Assembly (NCBI GenBank): GCA_050250375.1
Contig: JBFWOS010000001.1
Span: 702,361 to 766,360 of the forward strand
Direction: 5' to 3'
DNA length: 64,000 nucleotides
From: Candidatus Omnitrophota bacterium
Lineage (GTDB): Bacteria > Omnitrophota > Gorgyraeia > Zapsychrales > Zapsychraceae
In this document: positions 3,611-29,159 of the stretch, piece by piece
How the letters are laid out: every line of letters starts with the position of its first letter
How positions within the stretch are numbered: position 1 is the stretch's first letter
Notes under the pieces: model-generated
What the model was told of the DNA's origin: nothing
Databases searched by the model: none
Seen by the model: only the letters and a program-made list of their open reading frames with translations
Program-made: the position numbers and the translations under genes

Positions 3611-4219
3611 CTACACACTTTTTTTAGCGGTTACGGTTTTTCTGGGAGATGTCCGTCGGGTTTCGGAATGACCGTTGATCATGATCTTGGCCGCGGCCAG
3701 CAGATTCCTGGCGACAAAGTCCGGCTTGATCTTTTTTTCGCGCAGCCGTCCGGTGTCACTGCGTCCGGACAAGACAAAAATAGTCTTGCAGCCGGCGTTG
3801 CGGCCGGTGGCCATGTCCGTCACGGTGTCCCCGACAAAAAAGGCATTATTGGCGATCTGCATATCTTTTCTCAGCAACTTTACGGCCTTGCGGATGGACC
3901 CGATATTCGGTTTGCGGTCTTGACAATCCGAATCGGACCGGGCCGTGCTGTAATAAACCTCCCGGATGACGCCTCCCGCCTTGTTCACTTCCCTCAGCAT
4001 CTTGTTGGTGATCTGGTCGAGTTTCTTCTGGGTGAATATGCCTTTGCCGACCCCGGCCTGGTTGGAGACCACAAAGATGGTAAACCCGTCTTCGGTCAGC
4101 ATCCGGATCGCCTCGAGCGAACCGCGGATGAACTGGAAATTCTTGACCTTGGTGACATACTTCCCGTTGCCCGGAAATTTATTGATGACCCCGTCTCTGT
4201 CTAAAAATGCGATTTTCAT
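3611..4219 (-). CDS. gmhB: D-glycero-D-manno-heptose 1,7-bisphosphate 7-phosphatase (HAD family)
   Basis: FLDRDGVIN and DRKPNIG HAD motifs, about 200 aa. Collinear with E. coli GmhB. 4-nt overlap with the downstream GT2 gene. Confidence 0.8.
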   Translation of the reverse strand: MKIAFLDRDGVINKFPGNGKYVTKVKNFQFIRGSLEAIRMLTEDGFTIFVVSNQAGVGKGIFTQKKLDQITNKMLREVNKAGGVIREVYYSTARSDSDCQDRKPNIGSIRKAVKLLRKDMQIANNAFFVGDTVTDMATGRNAGCKTIFVLSGRSDTGRLREKKIKPDFVARNLLAAAKIMINGHSETRRTSPRKTVTAKKSV

Positions 4220-8657: not shown

Positions 8658-8674
8658 CAGAATTTCCTCAAAAA

Positions 8675-8690: not shown

Positions 8691-8709
8691 ACAACTGCCC
8701 AAAAAAATT

Positions 8710-9306: not shown

Positions 9307-9309
9307 GCT

Positions 9310-9346: not shown

Positions 9347-9435
9347 ATTTTAAAAAACTTTGCGGGAGGCGCGGGACAGGACGTTTGTCGAACATGGATA
9401 ATGACCAACTGCCCTCTACCTTACCTTTTCCACAT

Positions 9436-9906: not shown

Positions 9907-9929
9907 AAAAACGTGCCAGTTTGTGCCAG

Positions 9930-10490
9930 CTATCTATTTTCTTCAATCCAATCATGCGCAAGCTTATTAATTCGTTTAATCTGTTCTGGGGTTAAGCTTC
10001 GCATGATTTGATCTCGTAAACCACGGGCTCTCCATTTGGCCTGCATATCTGAAGATAGCTGCGTGTAAAACCGAGCAATCTCGAGCCAGAAATATGCTTT
10101 TTCAAAAGATTGTTCAATATTATCGCCGTCTCCATACATTACTGCCAAATTAATCATTCCCCTTGGATCTCCGGCATTGGCAGCCTCTTTATATAGAGAT
10201 ATTGCTTTTTCATTATCTTCTGCAACACCTAAACCCAAGTCATACATATAGCCTAAGTTAGTTTTCGCATATGATAAGTCCTGATCCACAGCCTTTTGAT
10301 AATACATAACAGCCTTCTCATAATCTTGCGGAACACCATCTCCAAATTGATATCTGCTTCCCATATTATTTAACCCAGCACCTTCTCCCATCGCCGCTAA
10401 TTTTTGATCCTCAGATAAACTAGAAGCAGTCACAGTTGCGCAGCCACTTAGAAGTAAAGAAAAAATTAACAAATAAATTTGCTTGCTCAT
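9930..10490 (-). CDS. Sel1-repeat lipoprotein
   Basis: Lipobox LLLSGC. Tandem Sel1-like repeats (GVPQDYEKAVMYYQKAVDQ, GVAEDNEKAISLYKEAANAG). Confidence 0.75.
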   Translation of the reverse strand: MSKQIYLLIFSLLLSGCATVTASSLSEDQKLAAMGEGAGLNNMGSRYQFGDGVPQDYEKAVMYYQKAVDQDLSYAKTNLGYMYDLGLGVAEDNEKAISLYKEAANAGDPRGMINLAVMYGDGDNIEQSFEKAYFWLEIARFYTQLSSDMQAKWRARGLRDQIMRSLTPEQIKRINKLAHDWIEENR

Positions 10491-10557
10491 AATATTTTAT
10501 CCTACACTTATACGATGGACACACCGCTTAAGTAGTGGCATTACATTACTTAACTAC

Positions 10558-10697
10558 TGGTCAATCCCCTTCAACTTCAAAAAATCGCGGACGGTTTGGA
10601 CGACATAATCCATCTGGTTCAATTCAAGGTCCTGGTGGATGCCGATATGGGTGCCGCGGGCGGAGCAGTATTCGGCTTCCCGGGACGTACTTAATTA
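10558..10697 (-). pseudogene. Relic of the last ~43 codons of a DegT/ColD-family gene, a diverged copy of the 3-prime end of the gene at 12222..13475
   Basis: Translates to EAEYCSARGTHIGIHQDLELNQMDYVVQTVRDFLKLKGIDQ*. The intact gene ends EAEYCAGHGTHIGIHQDIELNQLDYVAQTVRDFLKAKGINR*. About 80 percent nt identity over ~140 bp. In frame directly behind the Fic stop codon. Confidence 0.6.
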
Positions 10698-12221: not shown

Positions 12222-13475
12222 TTACCGGTTAATCCCCTTCGCCTTGAGAAAATCGCGGACGGTCTGGGCGACGTAATCCAGCTGGTTCAGCTCGATGTCC
12301 TGGTGGATCCCGATATGGGTGCCGTGGCCGGCGCAATATTCCGCCTCGGGGAATTCACCTTGTTTATGCCCCATAAAGCCGTAACTCGGGCACTGGGTCG
12401 GGATGGAGGAAAATAAATTTCTTGAGTCGATCCCCTGCTGTTCGATGTGTTGCACGAATTCGTCTTTCGTAAACGGGCAGTTTTCTTTCAGGATGATCGA
12501 GAAGGCATGCGGCCCGATTTTTTCATGTTCCTGTTCATGCAATGTGATAAAAAATTCCTGAAAATCCCTGAACAGGTTGATCAGATACAATAAATTCCGG
12601 CGGCGTTTGCCCAGGATATCCTGAAAGATGTCGATATTACCCAGACCGACAGCCGCTTCCATTTCGTTCATCTTGGCGGAAAAACCGATCCGCTGGAACT
12701 CAAATTTGTTGACGATGCCGTGGTTGCGCAGCGACTGCATGGCCTGGGCTTTTTTCTCGTCGTTGGTGATGATGATCCCGCCTTCAATCGTGGTCACGAT
12801 ATGGGCGGCGTAAAGGCTGAAGGCGGCCATGTCGCCGATCGAGCCGATCTTCTTCCCTTTATATTCCGCGCCATGCGCCTCGGCCGCGTCTTCGATAACG
12901 ATCAGGTTATGTTTCTTGGCGATGGCCATGATCTTATCCATCTCGGCCGGTTTGCCCATCAGATGCACGGGCATGAGGGCGCGCGTTTTTTGGGTGATCG
13001 CTTTTTCAATCAGGTCCGGATTGATATTCAGCGTGTGCCGGTCGACATCCACAAACACAGGCGTTAACCCGGCCTGCAGGACGGCATTGGCGGTAGCGAC
13101 AAAGGTCAGCGCCGGGATGATCACCTCATCCCCGCGTTGGGCGCCGTAATCATACAGCACCGCGCAGGCAATCGCGTCGGCGTCGGTCCCGCTGCTGACG
13201 GCCACGGCGTATTTCACGCCGAACAGTTTGGCGAAACGTTCTTCGAACTCCTGCACAAAACGCCCGCGCGTCAGCCATTTTGACCGCAACGCCTCCTGGA
13301 TCAGCTCAACGGAGCGGTCCGTCAGGGAAACGGTCCCGAACGGGACCTTGAAATCTTTCTTAGCCGACATGGCTGAACTATTTTCCATTCCTAAAGAACT
13401 CCATGGCTTTTTCGTAGCGCTCCGGCGTGCCGATGTCAAAAAATTCGCCTTTGGACTTAAACCCGTACAAACCAT
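12222..13475 (-). CDS. ColD/E1(DdhC, RfbH)-type PMP-dependent NDP-4-keto-6-deoxy-sugar 3-dehydrase
   Basis: DegT fold in which the Schiff-base Lys is replaced by His (FSLYAAHIVTTIEGG, cf. ColD/E1 FY.HHI.TMEGG). C-terminal Cys residues are present. The start is more likely an internal Met (13388 or 13370), because the track start overlaps the upstream gene by 98 nt. Confidence 0.8.
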   Translation of the reverse strand: MVCTGLSPKANFLTSARRSATKKPWSSLGMENSSAMSAKKDFKVPFGTVSLTDRSVELIQEALRSKWLTRGRFVQEFEERFAKLFGVKYAVAVSSGTDADAIACAVLYDYGAQRGDEVIIPALTFVATANAVLQAGLTPVFVDVDRHTLNINPDLIEKAITQKTRALMPVHLMGKPAEMDKIMAIAKKHNLIVIEDAAEAHGAEYKGKKIGSIGDMAAFSLYAAHIVTTIEGGIIITNDEKKAQAMQSLRNHGIVNKFEFQRIGFSAKMNEMEAAVGLGNIDIFQDILGKRRRNLLYLINLFRDFQEFFITLHEQEHEKIGPHAFSIILKENCPFTKDEFVQHIEQQGIDSRNLFSSIPTQCPSYGFMGHKQGEFPEAEYCAGHGTHIGIHQDIELNQLDYVAQTVRDFLKAKGINR

Positions 13476-14088
13476 CTTCGATCAGGGAGGGAAACACATC
13501 GTATTCCAACGAAAACTTTCCTTCTTCGGGCATCATCTCAAACACATCCTGGTTGAAACAATACCGCCCGGCGTTAATAAAGGCCGCGCCTTTGTCTTTT
13601 TTTTCTTCAAAGGCCAGGATCCGGTCGGAGTCGTCCATCGTCAGGCTCCCGTAGTCTTTGCTGTCTTCCATCCGCGCGGCCACCATAGACGCGGCCGCTT
13701 TCTTGGACCGGTGGAATTCGGCAAATTTCTTAAAGTCGACCTCGCAGTAACAATCCCCGTTTAACACAAAAAACGGATCGCTTTCAACGATGGGCTGGGC
13801 GTTCTTAACCGCGCCGCCGGTCCCGAGCGGTTCTTCTTCCCGGGAAAAATCGACGACGAAATCCCGGTCGTTCTTCCGGTAATAATCTTCGATCCACTGG
13901 GCCTTGTATCCGGTGCACAGGACAAAACGCTGAAAGCCCTGCTCATATAATTTTTCCATGACGATATCCAGAAACGGCCGCTCTTCAAACTGGACCATGA
14001 CCTTGGGCGTGTCGGGGTCAATGCTTCTCAAACGTTTGCCTAACCCGCCGCACAGGATAACGACATCAAGATTCTCCAGCATTGTCAT
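13378..14088 (-). CDS. Sugar-1-phosphate nucleotidyltransferase (HddC/GDP-heptose guanylyltransferase-like)
   Basis: VVILCGGLGKRLR nucleotidyltransferase motif. Start chosen at MTMLENLD because the track N-extension overlaps the kinase gene. Confidence 0.8.
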   Translation of the reverse strand: MTMLENLDVVILCGGLGKRLRSIDPDTPKVMVQFEERPFLDIVMEKLYEQGFQRFVLCTGYKAQWIEDYYRKNDRDFVVDFSREEEPLGTGGAVKNAQPIVESDPFFVLNGDCYCEVDFKKFAEFHRSKKAAASMVAARMEDSKDYGSLTMDDSDRILAFEEKKDKGAAFINAGRYCFNQDVFEMMPEEGKFSLEYDVFPSLIEDGLYGFKSKGEFFDIGTPERYEKAMEFFRNGK

Positions 14089-15076
14089 ATTCTCCGTTCG
14101 GTTGATAAAAAATAATCTGGCTGCCCAGGCTCTCGAATTCAAACGGTACCAGGAGCAAATCCTTTAATTTTTCCCTGACCTTCTTCTGTTTCTCCGGGGG
14201 GACAAATAATAATACGAACCCGCCTCCGCCCGCCCCGAGCAATTTTCCGCCGACCGCGCCGGACGCCTTGGCCGAGTCATAAATCTCGTCAATCATCGGG
14301 GTCGAAATCTTGTCGGAGAGTTTTCTCTTGATCTGCCAGCCCTCATCGAGGAGTTCGCCGAATTCTTTGAGCCGGTCTTCCTTGAGCAGTTCAAGCCCCC
14401 TGACCGCCATTGCGTGCATGGCCTTCAACTCCGGTTTCTTTTTGGGGATATTTTTAATCTGATGGGCCGCGATCACCGAGGCGGTCCGGGAAAACCCGGT
14501 AAAAAATAACATCAAATGGTCCTGAAACCGCTTCAAGCGGTCCGAGGGAATAATCACCTTGTTGACCTGCAGAAGCTGGCTCCCGCCGAATTCAATAAAA
14601 TTAAATCCTCCGTAAGCCGCCAGCGCCTGGTCCTGGCAGCCGACATTTTCATGGCACATCTGCTGTTCGATATAAATGGCCTCTTCCGTCAGTTTGGACT
14701 TGCTCGTCATCCGTCCCAGCAGGGCGTAAAGGCTGTTTAACAATCCGACGGTGAATGAAGAACTTGAACCCAGGCCGGTCCGGGCCGGCAAATCGCCGTC
14801 GTGGTGGATCTCGATCCCTTTATGGATGTCCAGGTATCGAAGGACTTCCCGCACGGCCGGGTGATCAATATCATTGATTTCGGAAACATGTTCCATCTTG
14901 GAGTAGATGATCCTGGACTTATGGTCGAAGAACGGCGGCAGGTACCGGCAGGTGATATAACAATATTTATTAATCGTCGTTGCCAGGACAGCCCCGGGGT
15001 TGTTTTCAAACCAGGCCGGATAATCCGTCCCTCCTCCGAAAAACGACATGCGAAATGGTGTGCGGCTGATGATCAT
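14066..15076 (-). CDS. GHMP-family sugar kinase (HddA-like D-glycero-D-manno-heptose 7-phosphate kinase / fucokinase-like)
   Basis: MIISRTPFRMSFFGGGTDYP N-terminus. GHMP motif PARTGLGSSSSFTVG. Confidence 0.8.
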   Translation of the reverse strand: MIISRTPFRMSFFGGGTDYPAWFENNPGAVLATTINKYCYITCRYLPPFFDHKSRIIYSKMEHVSEINDIDHPAVREVLRYLDIHKGIEIHHDGDLPARTGLGSSSSFTVGLLNSLYALLGRMTSKSKLTEEAIYIEQQMCHENVGCQDQALAAYGGFNFIEFGGSQLLQVNKVIIPSDRLKRFQDHLMLFFTGFSRTASVIAAHQIKNIPKKKPELKAMHAMAVRGLELLKEDRLKEFGELLDEGWQIKRKLSDKISTPMIDEIYDSAKASGAVGGKLLGAGGGGFVLLFVPPEKQKKVREKLKDLLLVPFEFESLGSQIIFYQPNGEYDNAGES

Positions 15077-16584
15077 ACCGGCTTCCTCTCCTCCAGGATT
15101 TTTCTCTTAAGTTTGATCGTGGTTGAACGGACCGTCTCATCATAGGCCGTCTGGCCGAATTTGGTTTTGAGCAGATCCAGGAATTGGCTGTTCGTGTGAT
15201 ATTTCATCCAGGCCTCGTCCCGGAAGGCGAGCACTTCCTGCGCCGAGAGATATTTCGTCGGCAGCGGCAGCTGATGATAGGAATGCTGGGAATACCCCGT
15301 ATACGTGTCCGGAAGTTTCCAGCCCTTTTCAAGCGCCATGCCGTACAGCGGACTGCCGGGGTACGCCATAGCCGAATAAAAATTGGCCTCTTCGGTGTTC
15401 ATCTCCATCGCCAGGTCCAGGGTCGTCTGCATGCTCTGGTGATCATCCTCGGGAAGGCCGAAAATGTAATTGGCGATGACGTTGATGTCATGCTCCCGGA
15501 TTTTCCCGACCACGTCCCTGATGTCGACATCTTCAAACCGGCCTTTGGTGACATCCTTGCGCACCCGGGTATTGCCGCTTTCGATGCCCAGGGCCAGCCA
15601 ATTGACACCGGCTTTTTTGAGGGTCTCGAGAAATTTTTCTTTGACCGTGTCCACCCGGGAATAACACCAGATGTTGAATTTGTATTTCCGTTCGATGATC
15701 AGTTCACACAGCTTCATAAAATGATTTGAGTTCAGGACGAACAGTTCGTCGGCGATCTTGATATTGGTGATCCCGCGTTTGGCGAGTTCATCAAATTCTC
15801 CAATGATGAATTCCGGGTCCCAGTAACGGAACACGGCACTTCCGTCGGAATACTGGTTTTCCTGCCGGTTGATGATGTTGATCATGCAAAACGAACATTT
15901 CATCGGGCAGCCGAGGCTGGTGTACAAGGCCGCGAACGGCTGGCGTTGGGAACCGTTCGGGTACGAATGCCACAGGCTTGTCCGGTAATTTTTCATCGGC
16001 AGTTTGTCCCAGGGAATACCCGGCAGTTCTTTGGGCAGGTCCGCCTTCTCGACGATCGGGGAGGGCGCGTTTAACACGACTGTTCCGTCCTGCCTGTATC
16101 CGAGTCCGGGAACGGCACTAAGTTTGTCTTTCAAATTGGTCTTAAGCAAAGTGGAAATCGTGTAAACCCCTTCGTTCTGGCAGACAAAATCGATGCACGC
16201 GTGATTCTCCAGCACTTCGCGGGATAACGCGGCGATGTGGCCCCCGACAAACAGAATCTTTACCTCCGGCAAGATATTCCTGAGCTCCTGCGCGAGCGCG
16301 ACGGCGCCTTCCATATTCTGCGAACTCGCGGACGGCTGCTGGCCGTAAACGACAAAACAGGCCACCTTCGGCTTTATCTCCTTGATCTTCCGGGCTGATT
16401 CTTCATCCGTTAAGTGCAGGGCCTCACAGTCGAGGATGTCCGCCGAAAACCCTCTCGAGAGACAGTGGCTGGTCAGCATACCGGCCCAGATCGGCGGCTC
16501 AATGGCAGAAAAATCTTTGCTTAAATCCTGGTAGATTTTATGCGAGGCATTGGGATGAACAAATAAAATATCAAGCTGTCCCAT
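15073..16584 (-). CDS. Cobalamin(B12)-binding radical SAM protein (class B rSAM)
   Basis: N-terminal B12-binding Rossmann-like domain (KILFVGGHIAAL). CPMKCSFC radical SAM cluster motif. 503 aa. 4-nt overlap with the kinase gene. Confidence 0.85.
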   Translation of the reverse strand: MGQLDILFVHPNASHKIYQDLSKDFSAIEPPIWAGMLTSHCLSRGFSADILDCEALHLTDEESARKIKEIKPKVACFVVYGQQPSASSQNMEGAVALAQELRNILPEVKILFVGGHIAALSREVLENHACIDFVCQNEGVYTISTLLKTNLKDKLSAVPGLGYRQDGTVVLNAPSPIVEKADLPKELPGIPWDKLPMKNYRTSLWHSYPNGSQRQPFAALYTSLGCPMKCSFCMINIINRQENQYSDGSAVFRYWDPEFIIGEFDELAKRGITNIKIADELFVLNSNHFMKLCELIIERKYKFNIWCYSRVDTVKEKFLETLKKAGVNWLALGIESGNTRVRKDVTKGRFEDVDIRDVVGKIREHDINVIANYIFGLPEDDHQSMQTTLDLAMEMNTEEANFYSAMAYPGSPLYGMALEKGWKLPDTYTGYSQHSYHQLPLPTKYLSAQEVLAFRDEAWMKYHTNSQFLDLLKTKFGQTAYDETVRSTTIKLKRKILEERKPV

Positions 16585-16715: not shown

Positions 16716-17663
16716 TTAAACGTTACTGAGTTGGGATGTCACCTGCCGGACCTTCGGGATCACCGTGTAGCCTTTAATCAACTCGGTAATACCGTCCGCC
16801 AGGGAGACATCGGGCCTGAAGCCCGTCTTTTCAATTTTTTCATTACTGACGATATAATCCCTCTTATCAGGATCTTCGCCGGCATGGGATTCACTAAAAT
16901 TAAACCCGGGCACCTGTTTTTTGATTTCTTCGCACAGCTGCAACTTGCTGATATTCGCGTCACTGAGACCTACATTATAGGGTTCATCCTTCATCTTGTC
17001 AAAATGGTCGAGGGCATGCATGAACGCCTTGGCAATATCACGGACATGGATAAAATTGCGCATAAAATGGGCCTCAAACAATTCAACCGATCCGTCAAAG
17101 ACGGCCTTGTACGTAAAATCATTCACCAGAAGATCAAGCCGCATGCGCGGCGACACACCAAAGGCCGTGGCCAGGCGCAACGTGATCCCCTCTCCGGCTT
17201 CAAGGACCATCTGTTCGGCCTGGACCTTCAGCCGGCCGTAAACCGAGATCGGTTTTAACGGTGTTTCCTCCGTGCAGAACTTTCCTTTTTCCCCGATGCC
17301 GTAACCGCTGTTGGTCGTCGGATAAATGATCTTCTGTCCCGGACGGCGCAGTTTGATGATCTCCCTGAGGGCGTCAATTATAATTTCCTCGGCTTCTTTA
17401 GGATGACGGTCGCAGATCGGCGCTCCGGTCAGACACGCCAATGGAAAAACGGCATCGGCCTGCGGAACCAGCCGCTTTAACAACGCCGCGTCCCGCGTGT
17501 CGCCCCGGACAATGGCCAGGCCTTTATGGTGACAGCAGTCCAACAGCGACGTCTGGTTATACATAAAATTATCCAGCACCGTCACGTTATGCCCGGCCTG
17601 CAAAAGACGCGGGACCATAACCGACCCCAGATATCCGGCCCCGCCGGTGATTAATATATTCAT
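16716..17663 (-). CDS. NAD(P)-dependent epimerase/dehydratase (extended SDR)
   Basis: NILITGGAGYLGS Rossmann motif and YGRLK catalytic dyad. Start taken at MNILITGG, giving an ATGA overlap with the upstream gene. Confidence 0.8.
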   Translation of the reverse strand: MNILITGGAGYLGSVMVPRLLQAGHNVTVLDNFMYNQTSLLDCCHHKGLAIVRGDTRDAALLKRLVPQADAVFPLACLTGAPICDRHPKEAEEIIIDALREIIKLRRPGQKIIYPTTNSGYGIGEKGKFCTEETPLKPISVYGRLKVQAEQMVLEAGEGITLRLATAFGVSPRMRLDLLVNDFTYKAVFDGSVELFEAHFMRNFIHVRDIAKAFMHALDHFDKMKDEPYNVGLSDANISKLQLCEEIKKQVPGFNFSESHAGEDPDKRDYIVSNEKIEKTGFRPDVSLADGITELIKGYTVIPKVRQVTSQLSNV

Positions 17664-18592
17664 GTCGAAACCTCGTTTTTGTACCAATCGATTGTCTTTT
17701 GAATTCCAACGTTTAGATCTTCTTTAACCTTCAGCCCCAATTTGTTCATCCTGCCCGTATCCAACAGCTTCTGCATAACCCCATCCGGCATCGAACGGTC
17801 ATATGTAATCTGGCCTTTAAACCCGGTCAATCGGGCGATCAGCTGCGCCAACTCTTCAATGGTGATATCCTTCCCTGTCCCGATATTGACCACATCCTCA
17901 CCCGCATCATTTTTCAGCATAAACAGGGCCGCTTCGATAAAATCATCGACAAAAAGAAATTCCCGTCTCGCCTTCCCGGAACCGCCGACACTGACTTCCG
18001 GGCGGTTATTCCGGACCGCGTCGACAAATTTGTGGATCAACGCGCCCATGACATGCGCGGTCTTTAAATCCGTATCCGATCCCGGCCCGTACACCGTCGC
18101 GGGGATCATCACCGCCGTGTTCAGCCCGTACTGTTTCCGGAAACTGCGGGCGAGAGAAATACCGGCGATCTTCGCGATGGAATACGGCTCACTGGTCTTT
18201 TCCAGCGGGCCGGTCAGGATGGCGTCTTCGTTCATCGGCTGCGGGCATTCCCCGGGATAAACGCATGAACTGGCCAGATAGAGAATCTTTTTGGCTTTAA
18301 ACTTATTCGCCGCGTAAAAAATATTGCATTCGCTTTGAAGATTATGATAAATAAAGTCCGCAGGAGATTGTTCGTTCGCGGTGATCCCGCCCGACCGGGT
18401 CGATCCCAAAACCACATAGTCTGGACGGTGGGTCTGAAAAAAATCGTAAACCGATGCCTGGATGGCGGCGTTAAGCGCCAGGGCTGAAACGCTGAAGACG
18501 GATGGAAACCCCTGCGCGGTGAAATATCGGCAGAGCGCTTGTTCGATTATATCATTGTGCCCGACCAGTAATATCTTCGATGATTTGTCCAT
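17660..18592 (-). CDS. GDP-L-fucose synthase (Fcl/WcaG/ColC) homologue with a degenerate dinucleotide-binding motif
   Basis: Collinear with E. coli Fcl (PADFIYHNL, LASSCVYP, EPYSIAKIAG, NIGTGKDITIEELAQ, MPDGVMQKLLD). Catalytic S/C/Y/K/H are retained, but GxxGxxG reads GHNDIIE. Confidence 0.8.
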   Translation of the reverse strand: MDKSSKILLVGHNDIIEQALCRYFTAQGFPSVFSVSALALNAAIQASVYDFFQTHRPDYVVLGSTRSGGITANEQSPADFIYHNLQSECNIFYAANKFKAKKILYLASSCVYPGECPQPMNEDAILTGPLEKTSEPYSIAKIAGISLARSFRKQYGLNTAVMIPATVYGPGSDTDLKTAHVMGALIHKFVDAVRNNRPEVSVGGSGKARREFLFVDDFIEAALFMLKNDAGEDVVNIGTGKDITIEELAQLIARLTGFKGQITYDRSMPDGVMQKLLDTGRMNKLGLKVKEDLNVGIQKTIDWYKNEVST

Positions 18593-19131
18593 TATTTCCG
18601 GTTGTAATAATTCCCGTGTTCAATCAGCAGTGTCGGGCGGTTGTCTTTTCGTTCAAGGGCCTCTTTGTACGCCGGAAAAATATCTTCCGGTTCCTCAAGC
18701 TCAACTACATGGACCGTGGTCAGGAGCCGCCGGAAGGCCTCGGCATAATTCCCGACGTGCTGATGGCCGGGGTTGACCGGTTCATCCGGGCCGGTGGCCA
18801 CACGGATAATCACTCTGGGGACAAGCCGGTCCCCGCTGATCGCGGGTATTTTATCGAGCATGTTGGCCATATCACCCGTGGCCAGCAGTAAAAAATTCTG
18901 ACGCGGATAAACACTGATCGGAATATATCCGGCCAGCGCCATGCCGATGGTAAACTGCATCTGGAAACTCTCGTTGATCGGCATCTCAAGCGTCTTTTCC
19001 CGGGGCACATCCCGCAGGGTCTGGAACATAAACGTACCGGGTCCGGCGACCGTCTGCCCGACAAACATCGTATTCGGCTGCTGCGCCAGCCACTCCATGG
19101 TCCTTTTTAGTTCATCAAAATATTTCATCAA
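18592..19131 (-). CDS. TPP-enzyme Pyr-domain subunit (2-oxoacid dehydrogenase E1-beta / transketolase central domain-like), short form without the C-terminal E2-binding domain
   Basis: FVGQTVAGPGTFMFQTL...PINESFQMQFTIGMALAGYIPI resembles the E1beta N-domain. Only 179 aa. Confidence 0.6.
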   Translation of the reverse strand: MMKYFDELKRTMEWLAQQPNTMFVGQTVAGPGTFMFQTLRDVPREKTLEMPINESFQMQFTIGMALAGYIPISVYPRQNFLLLATGDMANMLDKIPAISGDRLVPRVIIRVATGPDEPVNPGHQHVGNYAEAFRRLLTTVHVVELEEPEDIFPAYKEALERKDNRPTLLIEHGNYYNRK

Positions 19132-19141
19132 TCAAATCCGT

Positions 19142-19756
19142 TTAAAATTTTATTTTCCAGCCCAGCCCGGAATGGGGGTATTCATTCTTGTATTGAAAAT
19201 AAATGATTTTCTTTTCGTATTTAGTCCCTTTAAACCACGGGTCAGGGCTTCCCCAGACTTCGCGGGTATCGGTCATGACGCTCAGACCGTTATCGCCGAC
19301 AATAAATTTGACAGGCAGATCAAAATTGACCGCGTATTTCACCGCTTCGTGAAAGATCCCTGTTTCCGCCGACATGTCCCCGCAAAAAAGAAAGGCACGT
19401 CCATTTTTCTTCTGGTTTTTCAGGCTCCAGGCCGTGCCCACGGCCGTGCCCATCAGGCTGCCGACAATCCCTGAACACAGGACTTTGTGTTCCGGAAAAC
19501 ACAGCGCGATGCTGTTCCCCTGAAGGATCGATTCTTTCAACGCATCCCGGGGAACACCTTTCAACAGGGCCAGTTCATGCGAGTCCCAGAACCCGAACAC
19601 AAAATCATCCGGCCCGATATTTTCTTCCCGGAAAATCCGGATCAGGGCATCTTCCCGCCCCGCCCTCAGATGGACCGGAGCGCGGATAACGCCCTGGGCG
19701 AAGATTTCAGCAATTTCCTTTTCGAAACTGATCAGATCGTCTTTAGTAATATTCAT
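19142..19756 (-). CDS. TPP-binding PP-domain subunit (E1-alpha / transketolase N-terminal-like), short form
   Basis: TPP motif GDMSAETGIFHEAVKYAVNFDLPVKFIVGDNG (GDG-x26-NN pattern). 204 aa. Confidence 0.65.
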   Translation of the reverse strand: MNITKDDLISFEKEIAEIFAQGVIRAPVHLRAGREDALIRIFREENIGPDDFVFGFWDSHELALLKGVPRDALKESILQGNSIALCFPEHKVLCSGIVGSLMGTAVGTAWSLKNQKKNGRAFLFCGDMSAETGIFHEAVKYAVNFDLPVKFIVGDNGLSVMTDTREVWGSPDPWFKGTKYEKKIIYFQYKNEYPHSGLGWKIKF

Positions 19757-19759
19757 TTG

Positions 19760-19918
19760 TTAAAAAATCGTGTAAATAAAAGGAGTCACCGCCGAAGTCT
19801 GAGCAAAAATGATCAGCAGACTTAAGATCACCAGAATAATGATGATCGGCGCGAGCCAATATCTTTTTCTGACCTTAAGAAACTCCCAGAATTCTTTTAA
19901 GATTGTAATTTTTGCCAT
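19760..19918 (-). CDS. SxtK-like small membrane protein (DUF5989-type), 52 aa
   Basis: MAKITILKEFWEFLKVRKRYWLAPIIIILVILSLLIIFAQ... is a single TM helix. Not in the ORF track because it is too short. Confidence 0.5.
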   Translation of the reverse strand: MAKITILKEFWEFLKVRKRYWLAPIIIILVILSLLIIFAQTSAVTPFIYTIF

Positions 19919-19920
19919 AA

Positions 19921-20466
19921 TTAAAATTGTTTGGTGTAGTGTTCCTGTTTAAACTCTTTAATTTCACGTTTGATCCAATAAGAATCCGCTTTCGGATCAA
20001 GCGCCCTGGTCAGATAATCCTTTTTCGCCATTTTTAAAAATAAGGCCACCGGTGTAAAAACCAGATAATACATCAATCCCAAAATGACGGCCGTTAAAAC
20101 ATGGCTGATCGCGTGCCCGCCCTTCATCCATACTTTGTAAACAGGCGCCAGCTGATCGACGTTAAGGATTGTCGTTATCAAAAATGCCGCGGCTATACAG
20201 AAAAACAACATCGGGAGCGGCGTCGGGTGGGACTGAAAAATCCGGAAAGCCGTAAATATCAAAACAAGGAATATCCAGGCATTTGCCTTCGGGGTCAGCT
20301 CGGAAGTCTTCGTCGTTACCCACAACACACCGGAAAAACCGGCCAGCAGGATCAGCACGGACACCGCACTAAAGCCAAGTTTATAGCTGTGAAAGCAGAT
20401 CAGGTACGGGATAATCAAGGACATCCCGTAACCATACACATATAAATCTTTTTTTTCTTTTTCCAT
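19921..20466 (-). CDS. SxtJ-like membrane protein
   Basis: Four predicted TM helices. Start chosen at MEKEKKDLYV, 1 nt after the carbamoyltransferase stop; the track extension overlaps the upstream gene by 146 nt. Confidence 0.55.
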   Translation of the reverse strand: MEKEKKDLYVYGYGMSLIIPYLICFHSYKLGFSAVSVLILLAGFSGVLWVTTKTSELTPKANAWIFLVLIFTAFRIFQSHPTPLPMLFFCIAAAFLITTILNVDQLAPVYKVWMKGGHAISHVLTAVILGLMYYLVFTPVALFLKMAKKDYLTRALDPKADSYWIKREIKEFKQEHYTKQF

Positions 20467-20467
20467 C

Positions 20468-22285
20468 TTAATCCAGAACCAGCGACATATTTTCTTTCTT
20501 ATACTTGTCCGACTTGGGCTGAAGGTTTTTATCCAGGATATAATTCTCAAGGACCAGGTAATCCATATCGGTGCACATAAAACACCGGTAGGCATCCTGG
20601 GGACTGCACACAATCGGCTCTCCCCTGATGTTGAACGATGTATTGATGATGACCGGGCATCCCGTCAGTTTGTCGAATTCCTTAATGATCTTGTAATACA
20701 ACGGATTGTCCGTTTCGTCAACCGTTTGTATCCGGGCCGAATAGTCAACGTGTGTCACCGCCGGAATGACGGAACGGCAGATTTTCAGTTTATCGATCCC
20801 GCTGGCCGACACTTTCTTCGATTCCGCGTTAATTTTCTTTTCGTTAACGTCCGCCACCATCAGCATGTATGGGCTGACCGTCGTATAATCAAAATACTCG
20901 GACACTTTTTCCTTAAGCACACTCGGAGCAAACGGGCGGAAGGATTCCCGGAACTTGATTTTCAAATTGATGATGGACTGCATCTTCTCGGAACGGGCAT
21001 CCCCGATAATGCTCCTGGCGCCCAGCGCTCGCGGGCCGAATTCCATCTTTCCGACGACCAGGCCGATCACCTTCTGATCATTGATCAAATGGGCGACCTT
21101 CAACGGCAGTTCGTCCGGATTGATACGGGTAAACGGCAGATTCTCCTGGCGTAAAAATTTTTCAATCTCTTCATTGTCGAAACGCGGCCCCAGATACGAT
21201 CCCCTTTGCAAATCATTGATCCCGTCCACGTCCCGCTTATTTTGTAAATATTGATACCAGATGAATGACGCCACCCCCAGGGCCCCTCCGGCATCACCGG
21301 CCGCCGGCTGGATCCAGATATTTTTGAACGGACCTTTTTTTAAAATCTTCCCGTTCCCGACACAGTTAAGAGCAACACCGCCGGCCAGACACAAATTGTC
21401 GGCCTTTGTCTGGGCATAAACATAGTTCGCCATCTTCAGCATAATTTCTTCCGTGACTTCCTGGATGGAACGGGCCAAATCCATGTGGTGCTGTTTCAAT
21501 TCCGATTCCGGGTCGCGGCGGGGATGGCCGAACAATTGGTGGAATTTTGAATTCGTCATCGTCAACCCGACGCAATAGTTGAAATAATCCATGTTCAGCC
21601 GGAACGATCCGTCATCTTTAATGTCGATCAGATTCTGCCTGATTAAATCTGTATACTTCGGCTCACCGTATGGAGCCAGCCCCATCACCTTGTATTCACC
21701 CGAATTCACCCGGAATCCCAGATAATACGTGAACGCTGAATAGAGCAGTCCCAAAGAATGGGGAAAATTAATTTCACCCAGAAGCTTGACGCCGTTGTCT
21801 TCACCCACTCCGTAACTGGTCGTGGCCCATTCACCGACGCCGTCCATCGTCAGGATCGCCGCTTTTTTAAAGGGCGACGGAAAAAACGCCGAAGCGGCGT
21901 GCGATTCGTGATGTTCGGTAAAAATGATCTCCCCGTCATAATTCAATTCACGAAGGAGAAGATCTTTGAGGAAGATTTTTTCTTTCAGCCAGACCGGCAT
22001 GGCCTTCAAAAAGGATTGGATGCCCAAAGGAGCGTAACTCAGGTAGGTCAATAGCAGCCGTTCAAATTTCAAAAAGGGTTTATCATAAAACCCCACGTAA
22101 TCCACCTCATCAATCGATATGTTCCCTTCCTTCAGACAAAATTCAACGGCGTTTTTGGGAAACGATTCATCGTGTTTCTTGCGGGTAAACCGCTCCTCCT
22201 GGGCCGCGGCGATGATTTCCCCGTCCCTGATCAAACAGGCCGCGCTGTCATGGTAAAATGCGGAAATTCCTAAAATATTAACCAT
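20468..22285 (-). CDS. NodU/CmcH-family O-carbamoyltransferase
   Basis: MVNILGISAFYHDSAACLIRDGEIIAAAQEERFTRKKHD and HHESHAASAFF motifs. 605 aa. Confidence 0.85.
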   Translation of the reverse strand: MVNILGISAFYHDSAACLIRDGEIIAAAQEERFTRKKHDESFPKNAVEFCLKEGNISIDEVDYVGFYDKPFLKFERLLLTYLSYAPLGIQSFLKAMPVWLKEKIFLKDLLLRELNYDGEIIFTEHHESHAASAFFPSPFKKAAILTMDGVGEWATTSYGVGEDNGVKLLGEINFPHSLGLLYSAFTYYLGFRVNSGEYKVMGLAPYGEPKYTDLIRQNLIDIKDDGSFRLNMDYFNYCVGLTMTNSKFHQLFGHPRRDPESELKQHHMDLARSIQEVTEEIMLKMANYVYAQTKADNLCLAGGVALNCVGNGKILKKGPFKNIWIQPAAGDAGGALGVASFIWYQYLQNKRDVDGINDLQRGSYLGPRFDNEEIEKFLRQENLPFTRINPDELPLKVAHLINDQKVIGLVVGKMEFGPRALGARSIIGDARSEKMQSIINLKIKFRESFRPFAPSVLKEKVSEYFDYTTVSPYMLMVADVNEKKINAESKKVSASGIDKLKICRSVIPAVTHVDYSARIQTVDETDNPLYYKIIKEFDKLTGCPVIINTSFNIRGEPIVCSPQDAYRCFMCTDMDYLVLENYILDKNLQPKSDKYKKENMSLVLD

Positions 22286-22413: not shown

Positions 22414-23268
22414 TTACTTCAGAACTATATCCAACATTTTAATATATTTAGGATTTAAAGGCGTGCCATCATTCTTAATTGATTGTGAAATATAAAGAAG
22501 CGCCTCTGCCTGTCCATACTTGTTTTCAGTCCGAGTTACCAAGTAAAGAGCAGTATCGAAATCTTGCTGATCACTGTAATATTTAATCATAGGAAGGGTT
22601 GTATCGCTCCAGAAAGAAGTATCTTGTGATAACATTACGACATCAGTAGCCTTTTTATACTCTTTCAGCCCACTGTATGCCCCCGCAATACCAAGTAAAT
22701 GGCCATTCGCGTAATTTCCTGTTTTAAATTCTTCAATCGCTATGCCAACTAATTCAAGAGCCATTTTATAATCACCGGTTTTTTCATACAAGGCGTGTGC
22801 AGTATTAGCTAAAGCGTACGGGTCTTTTTGAGAAGCCGTAACGGCTTCCTCGTATTTCCCACTTTTTACCAATAACTGCACCGTATCCCATTTTTTCTGA
22901 TAACTCGGTATAGATGTTACTAAATAGCTGGTACCCGTGGTATCCTTTTTATATCTAGCATAAAGTTCCATTAGCTTTTTATGTTTATCGTCAATTCCCA
23001 AATTTTTATACTCGTCCGCAATATTTTTTAATATAGATAACTTTTCTGGCACAAAGCTATAATCTGAATGCAATATCCAAAAAGAATAATTCAATAGCGT
23101 CGCTTTCGCATTCTCTCCTTCTATTGATTTAATAATCATACCGTTAACCGGCTTTGCGGATAGATTTGGTCTAACGTTCTTAATCGAGCGTCCCTCAAGA
23201 AAGACTAATGCGCAGTAAACCAAGAAGGCTCCCACAATAAACAAAAATAAAACAGCTAATTTCTTCAT
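22414..23268 (-). CDS. Hypothetical membrane-anchored protein with TPR-like helical repeats
   Basis: N-terminal TM helix. AT-rich gene. Confidence 0.45.
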   Translation of the reverse strand: MKKLAVLFLFIVGAFLVYCALVFLEGRSIKNVRPNLSAKPVNGMIIKSIEGENAKATLLNYSFWILHSDYSFVPEKLSILKNIADEYKNLGIDDKHKKLMELYARYKKDTTGTSYLVTSIPSYQKKWDTVQLLVKSGKYEEAVTASQKDPYALANTAHALYEKTGDYKMALELVGIAIEEFKTGNYANGHLLGIAGAYSGLKEYKKATDVVMLSQDTSFWSDTTLPMIKYYSDQQDFDTALYLVTRTENKYGQAEALLYISQSIKNDGTPLNPKYIKMLDIVLK

Positions 23269-23359
23269 TTTTCACCTTTTGTTTTCGATGTCTTTGTCTC
23301 AAGTTAAACACTTAACCCACCATAGCCAACAACTCCGCCAGTTGTTAATTGCCAAACTT

Positions 23360-26300
23360 CTACAAACAATTTCCAGATTCACTGCCTGCATTGATAGTAG
23401 CTGATCCACTGATACTACAATCTCCAACAGTGGCCGCTTGCATATGAAAATTATTTGTTACAGTAACTTCTGAAGCTGCACTTAAGATGGCGTCGTCACC
23501 ACCAATCATATCAAATGAATCCGCGGTAATCTCTGCTCCCAAATTTATTTTGACGTCACTTGTTGACGTTGACCCCGTTGAGATCATTGAAGCACCCTCA
23601 GTAACTGTGACTTCGGATTCTGTACCAATCTCCACCTGTCTGTCGGCGCTCATTTCGAGGCTGGCAGCGGTAATCGCCGAGCTAATGCCAATCAATGCCT
23701 TACTGTTTGAACTCGTTCCCGTTGAAATGATCTCAAGTTCATCGTCAACATCCAAAATCATACCTGGACCTGTAGAGGCCTCTTGATTTGCTTCAAGTCG
23801 AACACTACCCGCATGAATTGTTGAAGTCTGCCCCATATGGGCTTTATTAGTGGAAGAGGTGCCCAGCGATTTAATGAGAAGCGGCCCGTCAACGTCGACT
23901 TGGGCGTTGCTGTAGATTTGTGCTATCTTGTATGCTTGCAAGGTCAATTCCGTGGCATTAATCGTTGAATTTGAACCCAGCTCTGTATCCCCGGTTTCTG
24001 AAACTAACGTCACGAATGTCCCGTTGATTGTCATTCCGTTCGAATTTGCGACCCCGGTTCGCCCATCAATGCAAATCCTTTCACCTGTGAGAACTTTTCC
24101 GGTTGCTATGGTTACCTTACAGGGAGAATGAATGTCAATGTTATCCATCGTGACATTGTAGTTAATTGTTAAATTTCTGTAATAAGTTCCCGTATAATCA
24201 TAATCAACAAGATAGTCTTCCAACTGTGAATCATTTGTAACGGTCGTTGTTGATGAACAGGTAACGCCAACCAGGTAGTCAGTTTTTATAGTACATGGCT
24301 CTTGCATAGGGTCGTTAATTGTGATCGTCAAATCCGGTGATCCTGGTGCATCTTCCCTATTTCCAACTTGGTCGGTTGCTATAGTATAAAACGAATATGT
24401 AGAACCGTTTACACCGACGAAGGACGTGAACGTTCCCGTGGTGGTTAAGGTTTCAGCATACGGACCTGAGTTTTCAGATACATAGATGGTGTATTCTTTT
24501 ATCCCCGAATGCGCGTCACTTCCTGACCACGAAATGTCAAAACTGGTCAAAGTGCCCGTTGATGCCATACTGTTCATGGAACTGGACGGTTTTGTATCAT
24601 CAATGGTGTTCAGCCAGGTATTGGTGGTGATTGGACTATTAGTGTCAAAAACTATGCTCGCACTATTGATTATTTCATCATTTGTTTCTACTGAATCTTT
24701 CGCCCGCACGGAAAATGTCACAAACCCATCGCCTTCGGGAGGATTATCATTAGGCGGTAAGAATCCAGCATTCGGATCATCCGTAAACATATGTGACTCC
24801 GGATCAAGAGAAATAAATTTCCACACGACGTCACCGGAAGCTGTGTTTAATGCAACCTCTATCCTCAAGATTAAGTCATTGTCAGGTCGCAAATCTACCT
24901 CGGTTATAAACTCTTGAATTCCGCTAGGCAGATTGATTATTTTTTCCGCAACTCCAATAGGTCCTAATTCAAAAGTACTTAAATCCAGAACCGTTGTATC
25001 TAGTTGGTCCGAAACGATAACTTCCTGCGCGGGTGCGCTTGCCGATTCGATATTCTCAAAATAAATTATATATTGCAAAGGCTGTCGTTTAGCAATATAT
25101 TTTTCTGAACCAAAACCCTGCGGACCAACAATAGCGTTAGGGTCTCGTGAAGTCACAAGAAAAATTATTTTCGCTAACTTATTTGCACCCCACCAAAAAT
25201 CCCAAGCTGTACTAACAACTCCTGAAGTGAGTTCCCATGTCACAATAGCTTTATCTATTAGCTGATTAAGTTCAGTCCATTTCAATACTTCATTAAACCC
25301 ACAGGTCGCTTTGCCCAGAGTCTGACCACAAAGTGATATCCACGGTTGTTCCCTTTGTTCCACAACACCATTGACCAATTTTCCATACGTTAGCAAAGAA
25401 TAAAATCCCAAACAAGATGTGTCGTATGGCGTTTCGATAGAACATCCCGTACCATTTGAGCTCCATTCACAAAATGTAACATTCGCCATAAGCACGGGTA
25501 AATTTTCTCTAATCCTGGAAACTAATGCAGGCATTTCTCCTGGTCTAATAGGTCTCAGGCCATATAAATGTTCTATTTGTATAGTTTTCGTTCCACCTCC
25601 GGGTAAATCAATCGTAACTTCTCCATCCTTGATGTCATTAAAAGGTATCTCAACAGGTCCCACCCCTCTTAGATTTAGGTATGTTTTATCATCCAATCGT
25701 GTTCCAATATAACCTTCCCCTTCAGGTTTTATGCTGGAGAACTCAGAATCATATATATTAAACCAGTCCAGAATACCATCCGGGGCATCTTCATTCGCCT
25801 TGTACCTCTGATTGGCATATTTTAGAGTTGTTGAAGGATTATTTGTTGCAGTTAGCGAGTCAGGCAATGGAAGTGTATTGTTTGTTGGTTCAAAATGTGT
25901 GACATTGTCACCAAAGCCAAAATCAATCACAGTACTACCAAAATTAAGACTGATGTTTCCAGAAGATAACGACGATTTTATTCTAATGGGAAAACTACGA
26001 GATGAATGAACCGGCAAATTTGCAACTATAAAACCTGCAACTGTGTCTTCAGCCAAATTCTTAAATGAGTCTGAGAATTCTGGGATCAGATAATCGACCT
26101 CATCAGGTATACCAACAAATAATTCCGCTGAAGTAATATCATTGTTTCCAATATTTCCATATGTAACCAAATAAGTTTGCTCTCTGTCGGGACGCATGTC
26201 TGTTCTACCAATAATATCCATCCACAGCCCACTTGGTGCTCCATCTTCAACGGTAAAAGCATTTTCACTTGTTATGGTATTTCCGGAATTTATTATCACA

Positions 26301-28205: not shown

Positions 28206-29159
28206 TTAACATTTTTGATGCCGCTGTTCAAACCAGTCGAATGTTTCCTTAAGCCCCTCATTAAGCTTGACCTTCGGCGTCCACTTTAAAACTTTTTTGG
28301 CTAATGAAATGTTCGGCTGCCGGGTCTTCGGGTCGTCAACGGGTAAGGGTTTATAGACAATCTTGCTTTTGGTTTTGGCCATCGTAAGGACCAGCTTGGC
28401 AAACTCCATGATCGTGAACTCATCCGGATTCCCCAGATTCACCGGACCGGAATGGTTTGACTTGATCATCCGGACGATCCCGTCCACCAGGTCGGAATAA
28501 AAACAGAACGACCGTGTCTGCTGTCCGTTACCGTAGACCGTTAAATTTTTGTTGTTTAAAACCTGGTCGATGAAATTCGGGACGACCCGTCCGTCCTTGA
28601 TCCTCATCCGGGGGCCGTAAGTGTTAAAAATACGGATGATCTTCGCGTCCACCTTGTGATAACGGCGGTATGCCATGGTCATCGCTTCCGCGAACCGTTT
28701 GGCTTCGTCATACACGCCGCGCGGACCGATGGGATTAACATGGCCCCAGTAATCTTCGGTCTGTGGATGGACCTGCGGGTCCCCATAGACTTCCGACGTT
28801 GACGCGATCAGGTACCTGGCCTTTTTCAGTTTGGCCAGCCCCAGGGAATTGTGCGTCCCTAACGCGCCGACCTTTAATGTCTGGATCGGATAGTTCAGAT
28901 AATCGACGGGTGATGCCGGTGAAGCGAAATGCAGGACATAATCGACATCGCCTTTGATGGTTATTTTTTTGGAGACATCGTGTTTCTTAAAGGCAAAGTC
29001 CTTGTTTTTCTTCAAATGTTTTATATTGTTCAGGTTCCCTGTGATCAGGTTATCGACACAGAGCACCTTGTTTCCTTCCGATAAAAACCGGTCACACAAG
29101 TGGCTCCCCAGAAAACCGGCCCCGCCTGTAATGACCACCACTTTCTTGTTCTTACTCAT
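28206..29159 (-). CDS. UDP-glucuronate decarboxylase (UDP-xylose synthase-like SDR)
   Basis: [35 protein letters not shown] closely matches the UXS family. Confidence 0.85.

Follow-up and report, generated by a model that had tools for sequence, protein, structure and literature searches.

The window analysed here is a 64-kb stretch (64,000 nucleotides) of contig JBFWOS010000001.1 of a Candidatus Omnitrophota bacterium. Its glycan cluster contains two short adjacent genes, named alpha and beta, which encode relatives of the E1 component of 2-oxoacid dehydrogenases and are predicted to use thiamine diphosphate (ThDP). The two products are referred to together as mini-E1, and positions are numbered from the first letter of the window.

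19142..19756, minus strand: alpha, mini-E1 alpha, PP (ThDP diphosphate-binding) domain, 204 amino acid residues (aa), ATG start
18592..19128, minus strand: beta, mini-E1 beta, Pyr domain only, 178 aa, no Transketolase_C / E2-binding domain

The open reading frame (ORF) of beta is listed from a TTG at 19131 (179 aa). Its homologs begin with MKYFDELKR, and for this reason the ATG at 19128 is regarded as the true start. A preliminary description of this DNA gave 204 and 179 aa for the two subunits; the size of alpha stands, and that of beta is corrected to 178 aa. The genes are separated by a gap of 13 nt. The stop codon of beta overlaps the ATG of the next gene, encoding an Fcl-like reductase (TAATG), so that no C-terminal domain or frameshift is hidden downstream.

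The profile search suggested in the preliminary description was run, and both proteins were matched over a part of the E1 length. Using Pfam, alpha matched E1_dh (E=8.5e-10) over profile positions 9-176 of 300 only, and beta matched Transket_pyr (E=2.2e-8) over positions 15-169 of 174. Transketolase_C was absent from beta in the Pfam scan, and a TPP_enzyme_C match remained below threshold (19.8 bits vs a cutoff of 21.9). The NCBIfam equivalog cutoffs for the E1 component of pyruvate dehydrogenase (PDH) were reached neither by alpha (57.9 vs 393.85 bits) nor by beta (31 vs 321). These matches and the gene overlap confirm the earlier description of a minimal E1alpha/E1beta-like pair with a Pyr-only beta subunit, as do the profile and Foldseek comparisons presented below, which point to E1 at about 45% coverage. 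Neither a full-length E1 match nor a frameshift was found.

Lineage and catalytic residues

A profile of alpha built from 46 diverse homologs was compared with related families. It scored 92.7 bits against human PDH E1alpha (E=2.3e-25, aligned residues 44-216), 57 bits against E1alpha of branched-chain keto acid dehydrogenase (BCKDH), 23-39 bits against transketolase (39 with split transketolase) and 23-34 bits against deoxyxylulose phosphate synthase (DXS). The hhalign comparison of alpha with AcoA covered positions 16-190 of 320. The beta profile matched the Pyr domain of E1beta (E=2e-11), aligning to residues 6-176 of the 329-aa human protein. Judging by these profiles, the pair belongs to the 2-oxoacid dehydrogenase E1 lineage.

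The GD(G)-x26-(N)N motif reported earlier for alpha was located as G126-D127-M128-x26-D155-N156. Five alpha positions (H29, G107, G126, L147 and N156) are invariant among the 46 homologs, and E35, H60, D127 and the C-terminal YPH195xG are nearly so. In beta, E53 and Q123-H124 are invariant and align in the ‘TPISE’ and ‘QHSQ’ stretches of human E1beta, respectively, which carry the cofactor-activating Glu and an active-site His. Thus, the catalytic Glu and His, the absence of which would have spoken against a ThDP enzyme, are both present and conserved as E53 and H124.

Native size of the subunits

A collection of 5.8 billion proteins contained 1,162 homologs of alpha, the best 120 of which are 203-245 aa long and 75-100% identical, and the exact alpha protein has been recorded from a Candidatus Omnitrophota metagenome-assembled genome (MAG). 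For beta, 1,046 homologs were found, and the best 120 are almost all exactly 178 aa long. An exhaustive HMMER search of 1.84 billion representatives gave 1,341 clusters at 50% identity, including 64 at E<1e-30, and the full-length members of these clusters are nearly all about 200 aa long. In the plasmid database, only canonical E1alpha at 24-32% identity was found. Truncation or pseudogene formation was considered and is ruled out, since either subunit keeps its size in over 1,000 homologs. The short length of both subunits is native.

Natural alpha-beta fusions exist (P0152 and P0229, 403-408 aa; SSM2_198 of cyanophage S-SM2, 402 aa), indicating that both chains form one enzyme. AlphaFold models were compact and had a mean pLDDT of 96.9 and pTM of 0.92 for alpha, and 79.5 and 0.80, respectively, for beta, where the input homologs were only about 80% diverse. 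In the Foldseek comparison, the chains that matched best were E1alpha and E1beta from PDH and BCKDH, with a TM score of about 0.8 when normalised by the query but about 0.45 when normalised by the target, which means that each subunit is about half of its canonical counterpart.

Three homologs of unusual length were also observed. The 550-aa alpha homolog P0175 carries an intein exactly before the C-G-D-M ThDP/Mg motif (...VFVF/C...HN/CGDMAAE); inteins are typically placed at catalytic sites. P0146 has a 337-aa N-terminal extension with a LAGLIDADG domain. The 552-aa protein P0238 combines an N-terminal phosphotransferase (kinase) domain of the APH type with a mini-alpha, so that phosphorylation and the ThDP step may be connected in some lineages.

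Absence of a dehydrogenase complex

The C-terminal Transketolase_C domain of E1beta is the binding site of the peripheral-subunit-binding domain of E2. No E2, E3, lipoyl or LipA/B domains were detected among the scanned ORFs of the 64-kb window, and no E2 was found in phages S-SM2 and P-TIM68 or in a 735-kb megaphage, all of which carry mini-E1. A partnership with E2/E3 encoded elsewhere, mentioned in the preliminary description as an alternative, thus found no support in the window or in the carrier phages. Only 24 phage-database records contain an E2 homolog. A canonical locus used for contrast has the operon lipA-acoA-acoB-E2-E3. Contigs labelled ‘Acinetobacter phage MD-2021a’ (CAKLQF02/CAKLQH02), together with locus L179, carry lipA, acoA-acoB-E2-E3, sucB and aceF; the phage label appears to be wrong, and the contigs resemble pieces of bacterial chromosomes.

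The operon in Omnitrophota

One genome of each species was scanned with a narrow alignment, which returned Omnitrophota only: 80 loci were obtained, all in Omnitrophota-type MAGs with 73-91% identity. Synteny was assessed by tblastn of the window proteins against 83 Omnitrophota loci. The stable gene order upstream is ROK-LptD-UGDH-UGDH-Epi317-alpha, where UGDH denotes nucleotide-sugar 6-dehydrogenases. Downstream it continues as alpha-beta-Fcl-like-SDR323-B12-rSAM-GHMP kinase-nucleotidyltransferase-DegT388, where SDR is a short-chain dehydrogenase/reductase and rSAM is a radical SAM enzyme. The corresponding genes of the window and the accessory and distal genes of the cluster are as follows.

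30500-31819, minus strand: UDP-glucose dehydrogenase, TuaD-like
29177-30478, minus strand: nucleotide-sugar 6-dehydrogenase, UDP-ManNAc/GlcNAc-dehydrogenase-like
28206..29159, minus strand: Epi317, UDP-glucuronate decarboxylase (UXS), matching human UXS1 with E=4.6e-106
20468-22285, minus strand: carbamoyltransferase, accessory trio
19921-20466, minus strand: SxtJ, accessory trio
19760-19918, minus strand: DUF5989, accessory trio
17660..18592, minus strand: Fcl-like GDP-4-keto-sugar reductase (possibly also epimerase), candidate pathway reductase
16716..17663, minus strand: SDR323, putative Cj1427-type GDP-heptose C4-dehydrogenase, match to PDB 6VO6
15073..16584, minus strand: B12-binding radical SAM enzyme (HpnJ/BchE/PhpK-like), putative C-methylation role
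14066..15076, minus strand: GHMP kinase, HddA-like (heptose-7-phosphate 1-kinase type), below equivalog cutoff
13378..14082, minus strand: sugar-1-phosphate nucleotidyltransferase, HddC/ManC-like (GDP-sugar formation), PF00483, below equivalog cutoff
12222..13388, minus strand: DegT388, DegT-family 3-dehydratase dependent on pyridoxamine phosphate (PMP), ColD-type, His196 in place of the Schiff-base Lys
3611..4219, minus strand: GmhB-like HAD phosphatase (heptose 1,7-bisphosphate phosphatase type), distal cluster end

The Fcl-like protein matches GDP-fucose synthases with 237-239 bits, MlghC (7ANH) with 218 bits and DdahC (7ANC) with 154 bits; the last two are heptose C4 reductases (PMC7949155). 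SDR323 matches PDB 6VO6/6VO8 over its full length (E=1.8e-112, residues 10-310), and Epi317 is about 57% identical to human UXS1. DegT388 resembles GDP-perosamine synthase and has His196 (FSLYAAH-IVTT) in place of the Lys of the latter. This His is kept in all 51 Omnitrophota orthologues compared, and we take a Lys-to-His change in the DegT fold to mark sugar 3-dehydratases of the ColD/E1 type. DegT388 is assigned to the ColD type because it lacks the Fe-S cysteines found in longer DegT proteins of about 440 aa, described below among the viral partners. The earlier identification of an Fcl-like reductase and a 3-dehydratase is therefore retained, given the GDP-fucose synthase matches and His196. 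The Fcl-like gene is directly adjacent to the pair, as had been stated; the 3-dehydratase gene, placed ‘next to’ it as well, is located about 5 kb downstream in the same operon.

The carbamoyltransferase-SxtJ-DUF5989 trio directly upstream of alpha was found in only 11 of the 83 Omnitrophota loci, which suggests an optional carbamoylation of the sugar product.

Viral relatives

The distant members of the alpha family (31-55% identity) are located mostly on phage-like contigs. From two IMG/VR scans came 51 and 37 viral loci; combined with other phage-type loci, they formed 55 clusters at 85% alpha identity. The following neighbours were counted within 7 kb of alpha in these 55 de-replicated loci.

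Extended SDRs: 40/55
DegT: 34/55
B12-rSAM: 25/55
GHMP kinase: 16/55
CTP_transf_like: 14/55
RmlC-like cupin: 9/55
SIS: 6/55
PfkB kinase: 5/55
HAD: 4/55

The gene right after beta usually encodes a reductase or a 3-dehydratase. Every one of the 36 viral DegT neighbours has His at the Lys position, making 37 of 37 partners when DegT388 is included; this lends independent support to the interpretation given in the preliminary description. Two architectures predominate. The first (Type 1) is rSAM-alpha-beta-GHMP-DegT(~389 aa)-Cj1427-type SDR, the last protein being 48-58% identical to SDR323. Some Type 1 loci (e.g., L159) also contain SIS, HAD and nucleotidyltransferase genes, which would complete a route to a nucleoside diphosphate (NDP)-heptose. 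The second (Type 2) is DegT(~440 aa)-4,6-dehydratase-like SDR-alpha-beta-short RmlD-like SDR. In one Type 2 locus, L084, the DegT protein passes the RfbH equivalog cutoff (453.9 vs 423 bits), the upstream SDR gives 297 bits with dTDP-glucose 4,6-dehydratase, and a Gmd-like gene is also present. The DegT partners of about 440 aa share a conserved set of cysteines consistent with the Fe-S cluster of E1/RfbH dehydrases. Since the partners include both the Fe-S RfbH type and the ColD type, their common feature is the 3-deoxy-4-keto sugar nucleotide product.

In 38 viral loci the sequence reaches 5 kb or more to either side; genes of NDP-sugar tailoring are present in 34 of them, and 17 of these 34 have no nearby sugar-phosphate activation gene; the reverse pattern, activation without tailoring, occurs in only two of the 38. 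Cultured cyanophages S-SM2 (L090, 8983-10191) and P-TIM68 (L091, 9049-10194) have fused alpha-beta genes annotated as ‘transketolase central region-containing protein’. Their neighbours are a zinc alcohol dehydrogenase, a PfkB kinase, a heptose-1-phosphate adenylyltransferase-like gene and a phosphoheptose isomerase. This third context may involve a different acceptor. Another phage-like sugar cluster, L089 (6355-8068, 9001-10247), encodes two pairs, a longer E1-like one (278 aa with E1_dh and 295 aa with Transketolase_C) and a minimal one (224 + 190 aa); genes for a B12-rSAM enzyme, SDRs and a His-type DegT are found there too.

Proposed function

The domain identity, the cofactor residues, the small size, the lack of E2 and E3, the conserved operon and the exclusive association with DegT proteins of the 3-dehydratase type are observed features of the pair. 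The transfer of a C2 unit from pyruvate onto a 4-keto sugar nucleotide appears to be the best-supported interpretation. It is probable that mini-E1 is a stand-alone minimal ThDP enzyme which attaches the acetyl group of pyruvate to the C4 carbonyl of a nucleotide-activated keto-sugar. The donor, the acceptor, the product and the order of steps, as we infer them, would be as follows.

The first three steps are predicted from family similarity. The HddA-like kinase, the GmhB-like phosphatase and the HddC-like transferase would provide GDP-heptose (step 1), SDR323 would oxidise its C4 (step 2), and DegT388 would take off the 3-hydroxyl to give GDP-3-deoxy-4-keto-heptose, the favoured acceptor (step 3). 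With a predicted C4-dehydrogenase, a 3-dehydratase and the other proteins named, the operon would therefore encode everything needed for the acceptor. The subsequent steps are inferred. Alpha/beta would decarboxylate pyruvate to hydroxyethylidene-ThDP and deliver this acetyl-anion equivalent onto C4, producing a 4-C-acetyl tertiary alcohol (step 4). The Fcl-like SDR, the gene of which is translationally coupled to beta, could then reduce a carbonyl (step 5), and the B12-rSAM enzyme could C-methylate (step 6). In some genomes the carbamoyltransferase might modify the product further before transfer. It may be speculated that GT9 and GT2 glycosyltransferases pass the product to an acceptor of the lipopolysaccharide (LPS) type (step 7). 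Mini-E1 is the only candidate for C-C bond formation in the operon.

Published pathways provide precedents. In all characterised cases of acyl-branched LPS sugars, a ThDP enzyme adds the acyl anion of a 2-oxoacid to a 3-deoxy-4-keto sugar nucleotide, and a YerF-type reduction comes next (PMC9306805). E1-type heterodimers termed alphaKADH2 acetyl-branch deoxy-keto sugars with pyruvate in antibiotic pathways, and one of them, KbDH-alpha/beta, was examined in an in vitro assay; an alphaKADH2 is predicted for about 120 clusters, and no structure is available (PMC12247030). Cj1427 and a C3-dehydratase produce GDP-3-deoxy-4-keto-heptose in vitro (PMC10680097). The yersiniose-type example given in the preliminary description was not apt, YerE being an unrelated enzyme of the acetolactate synthase type; the proper precedent is alphaKADH2 (AviB1/B2, Pau11/12, KbDH and EvdU5/S3), of which Pau11/12, the pair compared by length, is full-length. 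Erwiniose and caryophyllose were considered as heptose-derived sugars and set aside, as they are made from longer 2-oxoacid donors on CDP-4-keto-3,6-dideoxyglucose (PMC9306805). An analogy to the methylerythritol phosphate pathway (DXS, IspD, IspE) was also rejected, the transferase being PF00483/HddC-like and the kinase HddA-like.

A number of observations weigh against acetyl transfer to a GDP-heptose derivative. In 21 of the 55 viral loci, those of S-SM2 and P-TIM68 among them, no DegT gene lies within 7 kb of alpha. The C-terminal 32 residues of alpha gave no alignment to canonical E1alpha in either hidden Markov model or hhalign comparisons, which stop near residue 172; one of these residues is the conserved H195, which may be the equivalent of the active-site His of E1alpha. 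The scores of the HddA-, HddC- and GmhB-like proteins are all below the equivalog cutoffs, and no GmhA was found in the 64-kb window. We take PDB 6VO6 to be Cj1427, and a text search for confirmation found nothing relevant. A Cj1427-type SDR, a 3-dehydratase and an Fcl-like C4 reductase already complete a route to GDP-3-deoxy-heptose, and alpha/beta could act otherwise. Finally, the UXS encoded directly upstream in most Omnitrophota loci is another possible acceptor source.

Tentatively, acetyl transfer by mini-E1 can be extended to a wider set of statements, which taken together are possible and, as a whole, rather doubtful. The operon might yield a branched sugar of nine carbons that has not been described so far, a GDP-linked heptose of the 3-deoxy-4-C-acetyl (or 1-hydroxyethyl) kind, which may be C-methylated further by the B12-radical-SAM enzyme and, in some genomes, carbamoylated. 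Throughout the phylum Omnitrophota it could serve as a conserved surface component of the LPS type, and with the minimal ThDP enzyme many phages, S-SM2 and P-TIM68 among them, could produce branched sugars while infecting their hosts. In that case the 382-residue pair might be the smallest E1-type ThDP carboligase that works, and represent a new architectural subclass.

Alternative explanations

The last of these objections leads to a different acceptor. The pair might acetylate UDP-4-keto-xylose supplied by the upstream UXS (UGDH to UDP-glucuronate to 4-keto-pentose) in a eurekanate-like reaction. Epi317 is a UXS, UGDH-UGDH-UXS is directly upstream of alpha in 78 of the 83 Omnitrophota loci, and a eurekanate precedent has been proposed with EvdS6 and EvdU5/EvdS3 (PMC10338323). 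However, there is no UXS orthologue near the viral alpha/beta genes, where the best SDR identity to Epi317 is at most 32%, and it is the 3-dehydratase and the Cj1427-type SDR that are kept as partners in different lineages. In the window, 8.4 kb of inserted genes separate UXS and alpha, and enzymes of the hUXS1 type normally reduce the intermediate to UDP-xylose (PMC10338323). A pentose acceptor seems unlikely.

It is also conceivable that mini-E1 is a small transketolase or DXS building a heptulose, octulose or 1-deoxy-ketose phosphate, which an isomerase, a kinase, a phosphatase and a nucleotidyltransferase then activate. GHMP/PfkB kinases, CTP_transf_like, SIS and HAD proteins are encoded in some loci, notably in S-SM2 and P-TIM68, which lack DegT, one relative is fused to an APH-type kinase, and homologs give weak DXP_synthase_N matches. 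Nevertheless, the 92.7 bits with PDH E1alpha contrast with 23-39 bits for transketolase or DXS, tailoring without activation genes is seen in 17 of the 38 full-flank viral loci against two with the reverse, and Type 2 loci begin from a ready-made NDP-hexose via Gmd or RmlB-like dehydratases. We consider such an activity improbable.

A third proposal retains the sugar nucleotide and changes the chemistry. The pair might pass electrons from pyruvate to PMP-glucoseen as an E3 surrogate, use another 2-oxoacid donor, or carry out C-C cleavage or decarboxylation of a sugar. The complete association with His-type dehydratases would fit, as would the Fe-S cysteines of the RfbH-type partners; no E3-like reductase was seen in the one Type 2 locus examined. 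YerE-like enzymes with non-pyruvate donors are known as well (Steitz et al., PMC9306805). On the other hand, the dehydratase of the window is of the ColD type, without Fe-S cysteines, and needs no reductant (PMC10680097), which weakens the idea of an E3 surrogate. In addition, alpha/beta has no flavin or Fe-S domain, and the characterised alphaKADH2 branching enzymes are restricted to pyruvate (PMC12247030). The odds of this chemistry are likewise low.

A degenerate or truncated E1 of canonical PDH or acetoin dehydrogenase, or a canonical E1 with a remote E2, is suggested by database entries named, for instance, ‘pyruvate dehydrogenase E1 component alpha subunit’ and by the E2/E3 search in this genome having covered the 64-kb window, and is effectively excluded by the length and sequence, which are conserved at 73-95% identity in no fewer than 80 species-level genomes and also in over 1,000 homologs, the confident models, a beta subunit without Transketolase_C, NCBIfam scores far below the cutoffs, and the presence of the enzyme in phages without E2.

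Comparison with known enzymes

E1-like ThDP heterodimers that branch keto-sugars are an already known kind of enzyme. Members of alphaKADH2 (AviB1/AviB2, Pau11/Pau12, AlmDI/DII, KbDH-alpha/beta and EvdU5/EvdS3) are likewise two-subunit PDH-E1-like ThDP proteins encoded in sugar clusters without E2 or E3, and the known enzymes use pyruvate for a C2 (acetyl) branch on a keto-sugar (PMC4425429, PMC12247030, PMC10338323). The one pair compared by length differs in size, Pau11 and Pau12 having 325 and 345 aa (PMC4425429) vs 204 + 178 aa here. The known enzymes also belong to actinomycete antibiotic pathways, unlike the pairs of Omnitrophota LPS-type/heptose operons and phages; this comparison was made by published descriptions.

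The YerE-like lyases (ErwE, MygE, MMAR_2332 and JanthE) share the proposed logic, in which a ThDP-bound acyl anion is added to a 3-deoxy-4-keto sugar nucleotide and a YerF-type reduction follows. Their acceptor comes from a 4,6-dehydratase (or a C4 oxidase) and a PMP-dependent 3-dehydrase, and the products enter LPS. In contrast to the two chains of mini-E1, YerE is a single chain of roughly 580 aa with TPP_enzyme_N/M/C domains from the acetolactate synthase/decarboxylase superfamily, with another domain order and lineage, and acts on a CDP-linked acceptor. YerE is also a flavoprotein (PMC4425429).

Canonical E1 enzymes (PDH, BCKDH and acetoin dehydrogenase) have both folds, the GD(G)...N(N) Mg-ThDP motif and the Glu and His of beta in common with mini-E1. 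However, the latter lacks about 100-150 alpha residues (the C-terminal region and the phosphorylation-loop segment; canonical alpha has about 320-400 aa), the whole C-terminal domain of beta, and associated E2, E3 or lipoate genes. The minimal split ThDP decarboxylases ComDE (sulfopyruvate decarboxylase) and AzcB/AzcC likewise consist of two small subunits of about 165-190 aa, each with a single Pyr or PP domain. They belong to another superfamily, that of the decarboxylases (Foldseek TMq of about 0.62 and 11-12% identity for the AzcB/AzcC match), and are decarboxylases of small acids rather than enzymes of sugar clusters.

The GDP-heptose pathways of Campylobacter jejuni (Cj1427, the C3-dehydratase, MlghB/C and DdahB/C) resemble the operon in having HddA/HddC/GmhB-like proteins, a C4-dehydrogenase, a ColD-type dehydratase and an Fcl-like reductase. 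We know of no B12-radical-SAM enzyme in these pathways. They differ further with respect to ThDP, thiamine being mentioned nowhere in the main text of a review of heptose pathways (PMC10680097).

In open-access papers, no description was found of a form of 204 + 178 aa, or of such an enzyme in heptose/LPS-type clusters, in Omnitrophota or in phages. If the proposed function is correct, a PP domain and a Pyr domain, one of each, suffice as an E1-type ThDP core (about 380 residues, or about 400 aa when fused). It would then offer a compact scaffold for ketone-accepting carboligases, which are sought for tertiary alcohols and for which an alphaKADH2 structure has so far been absent (PMC12247030). 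ThDP-dependent branching would extend from hexose and pentose sugars of antibiotics to GDP-heptose pathways and LPS-type glycans of an uncultured phylum; for LPS sugars, only YerE-type ThDP branching enzymes were known. A function in phage-directed synthesis of branched sugars would be assigned to a widespread phage gene whose present annotation is ‘transketolase central region-containing protein’ or ‘hypothetical’, and mini-E1 with a His-type DegT would be a simple genomic marker for new branched-sugar clusters. The pair is thus of relevance to glyco-enzymology, ThDP biocatalysis and phage biology.

Other features of the window

Two regions interrupt the cluster. At 22414-28135 (minus strand) there are a 1591-aa ORF with a DUF7619 match only and a 284-aa ORF without a family match, both missing from all 83 related loci; the GC content of this stretch is 0.41 vs about 0.50, and it appears to have been inserted between the genes of UXS and the carbamoyltransferase. 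The second region, at 7272-11894 (minus strand), encodes a Fic/DUF4172 protein, a Sel1-repeat protein, a 156-aa ORF, a TetR regulator and an HTH_65-methyltransferase. It is also missing from all 83 loci, and in one of them (L001) the GT9 heptosyltransferase gene directly follows that of the 3-dehydratase. Because of this absence, both the ORF pair and the Fic-methyltransferase block are considered genome-specific insertions. A second DegT gene of the window (4990-6090) encodes the only Lys-type DegT in the analysis and lies outside the conserved module.

Every ORF of the window with a family match is on the minus strand and the GC skew is negative throughout, indicating that all 64 kb are co-directional. 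Outside the glycan cluster lie hrcA-grpE-dnaK-dnaJ, clpB, hflX and miaA, as well as genes for two GGDEF proteins and an alpha-2-macroglobulin-like gene.

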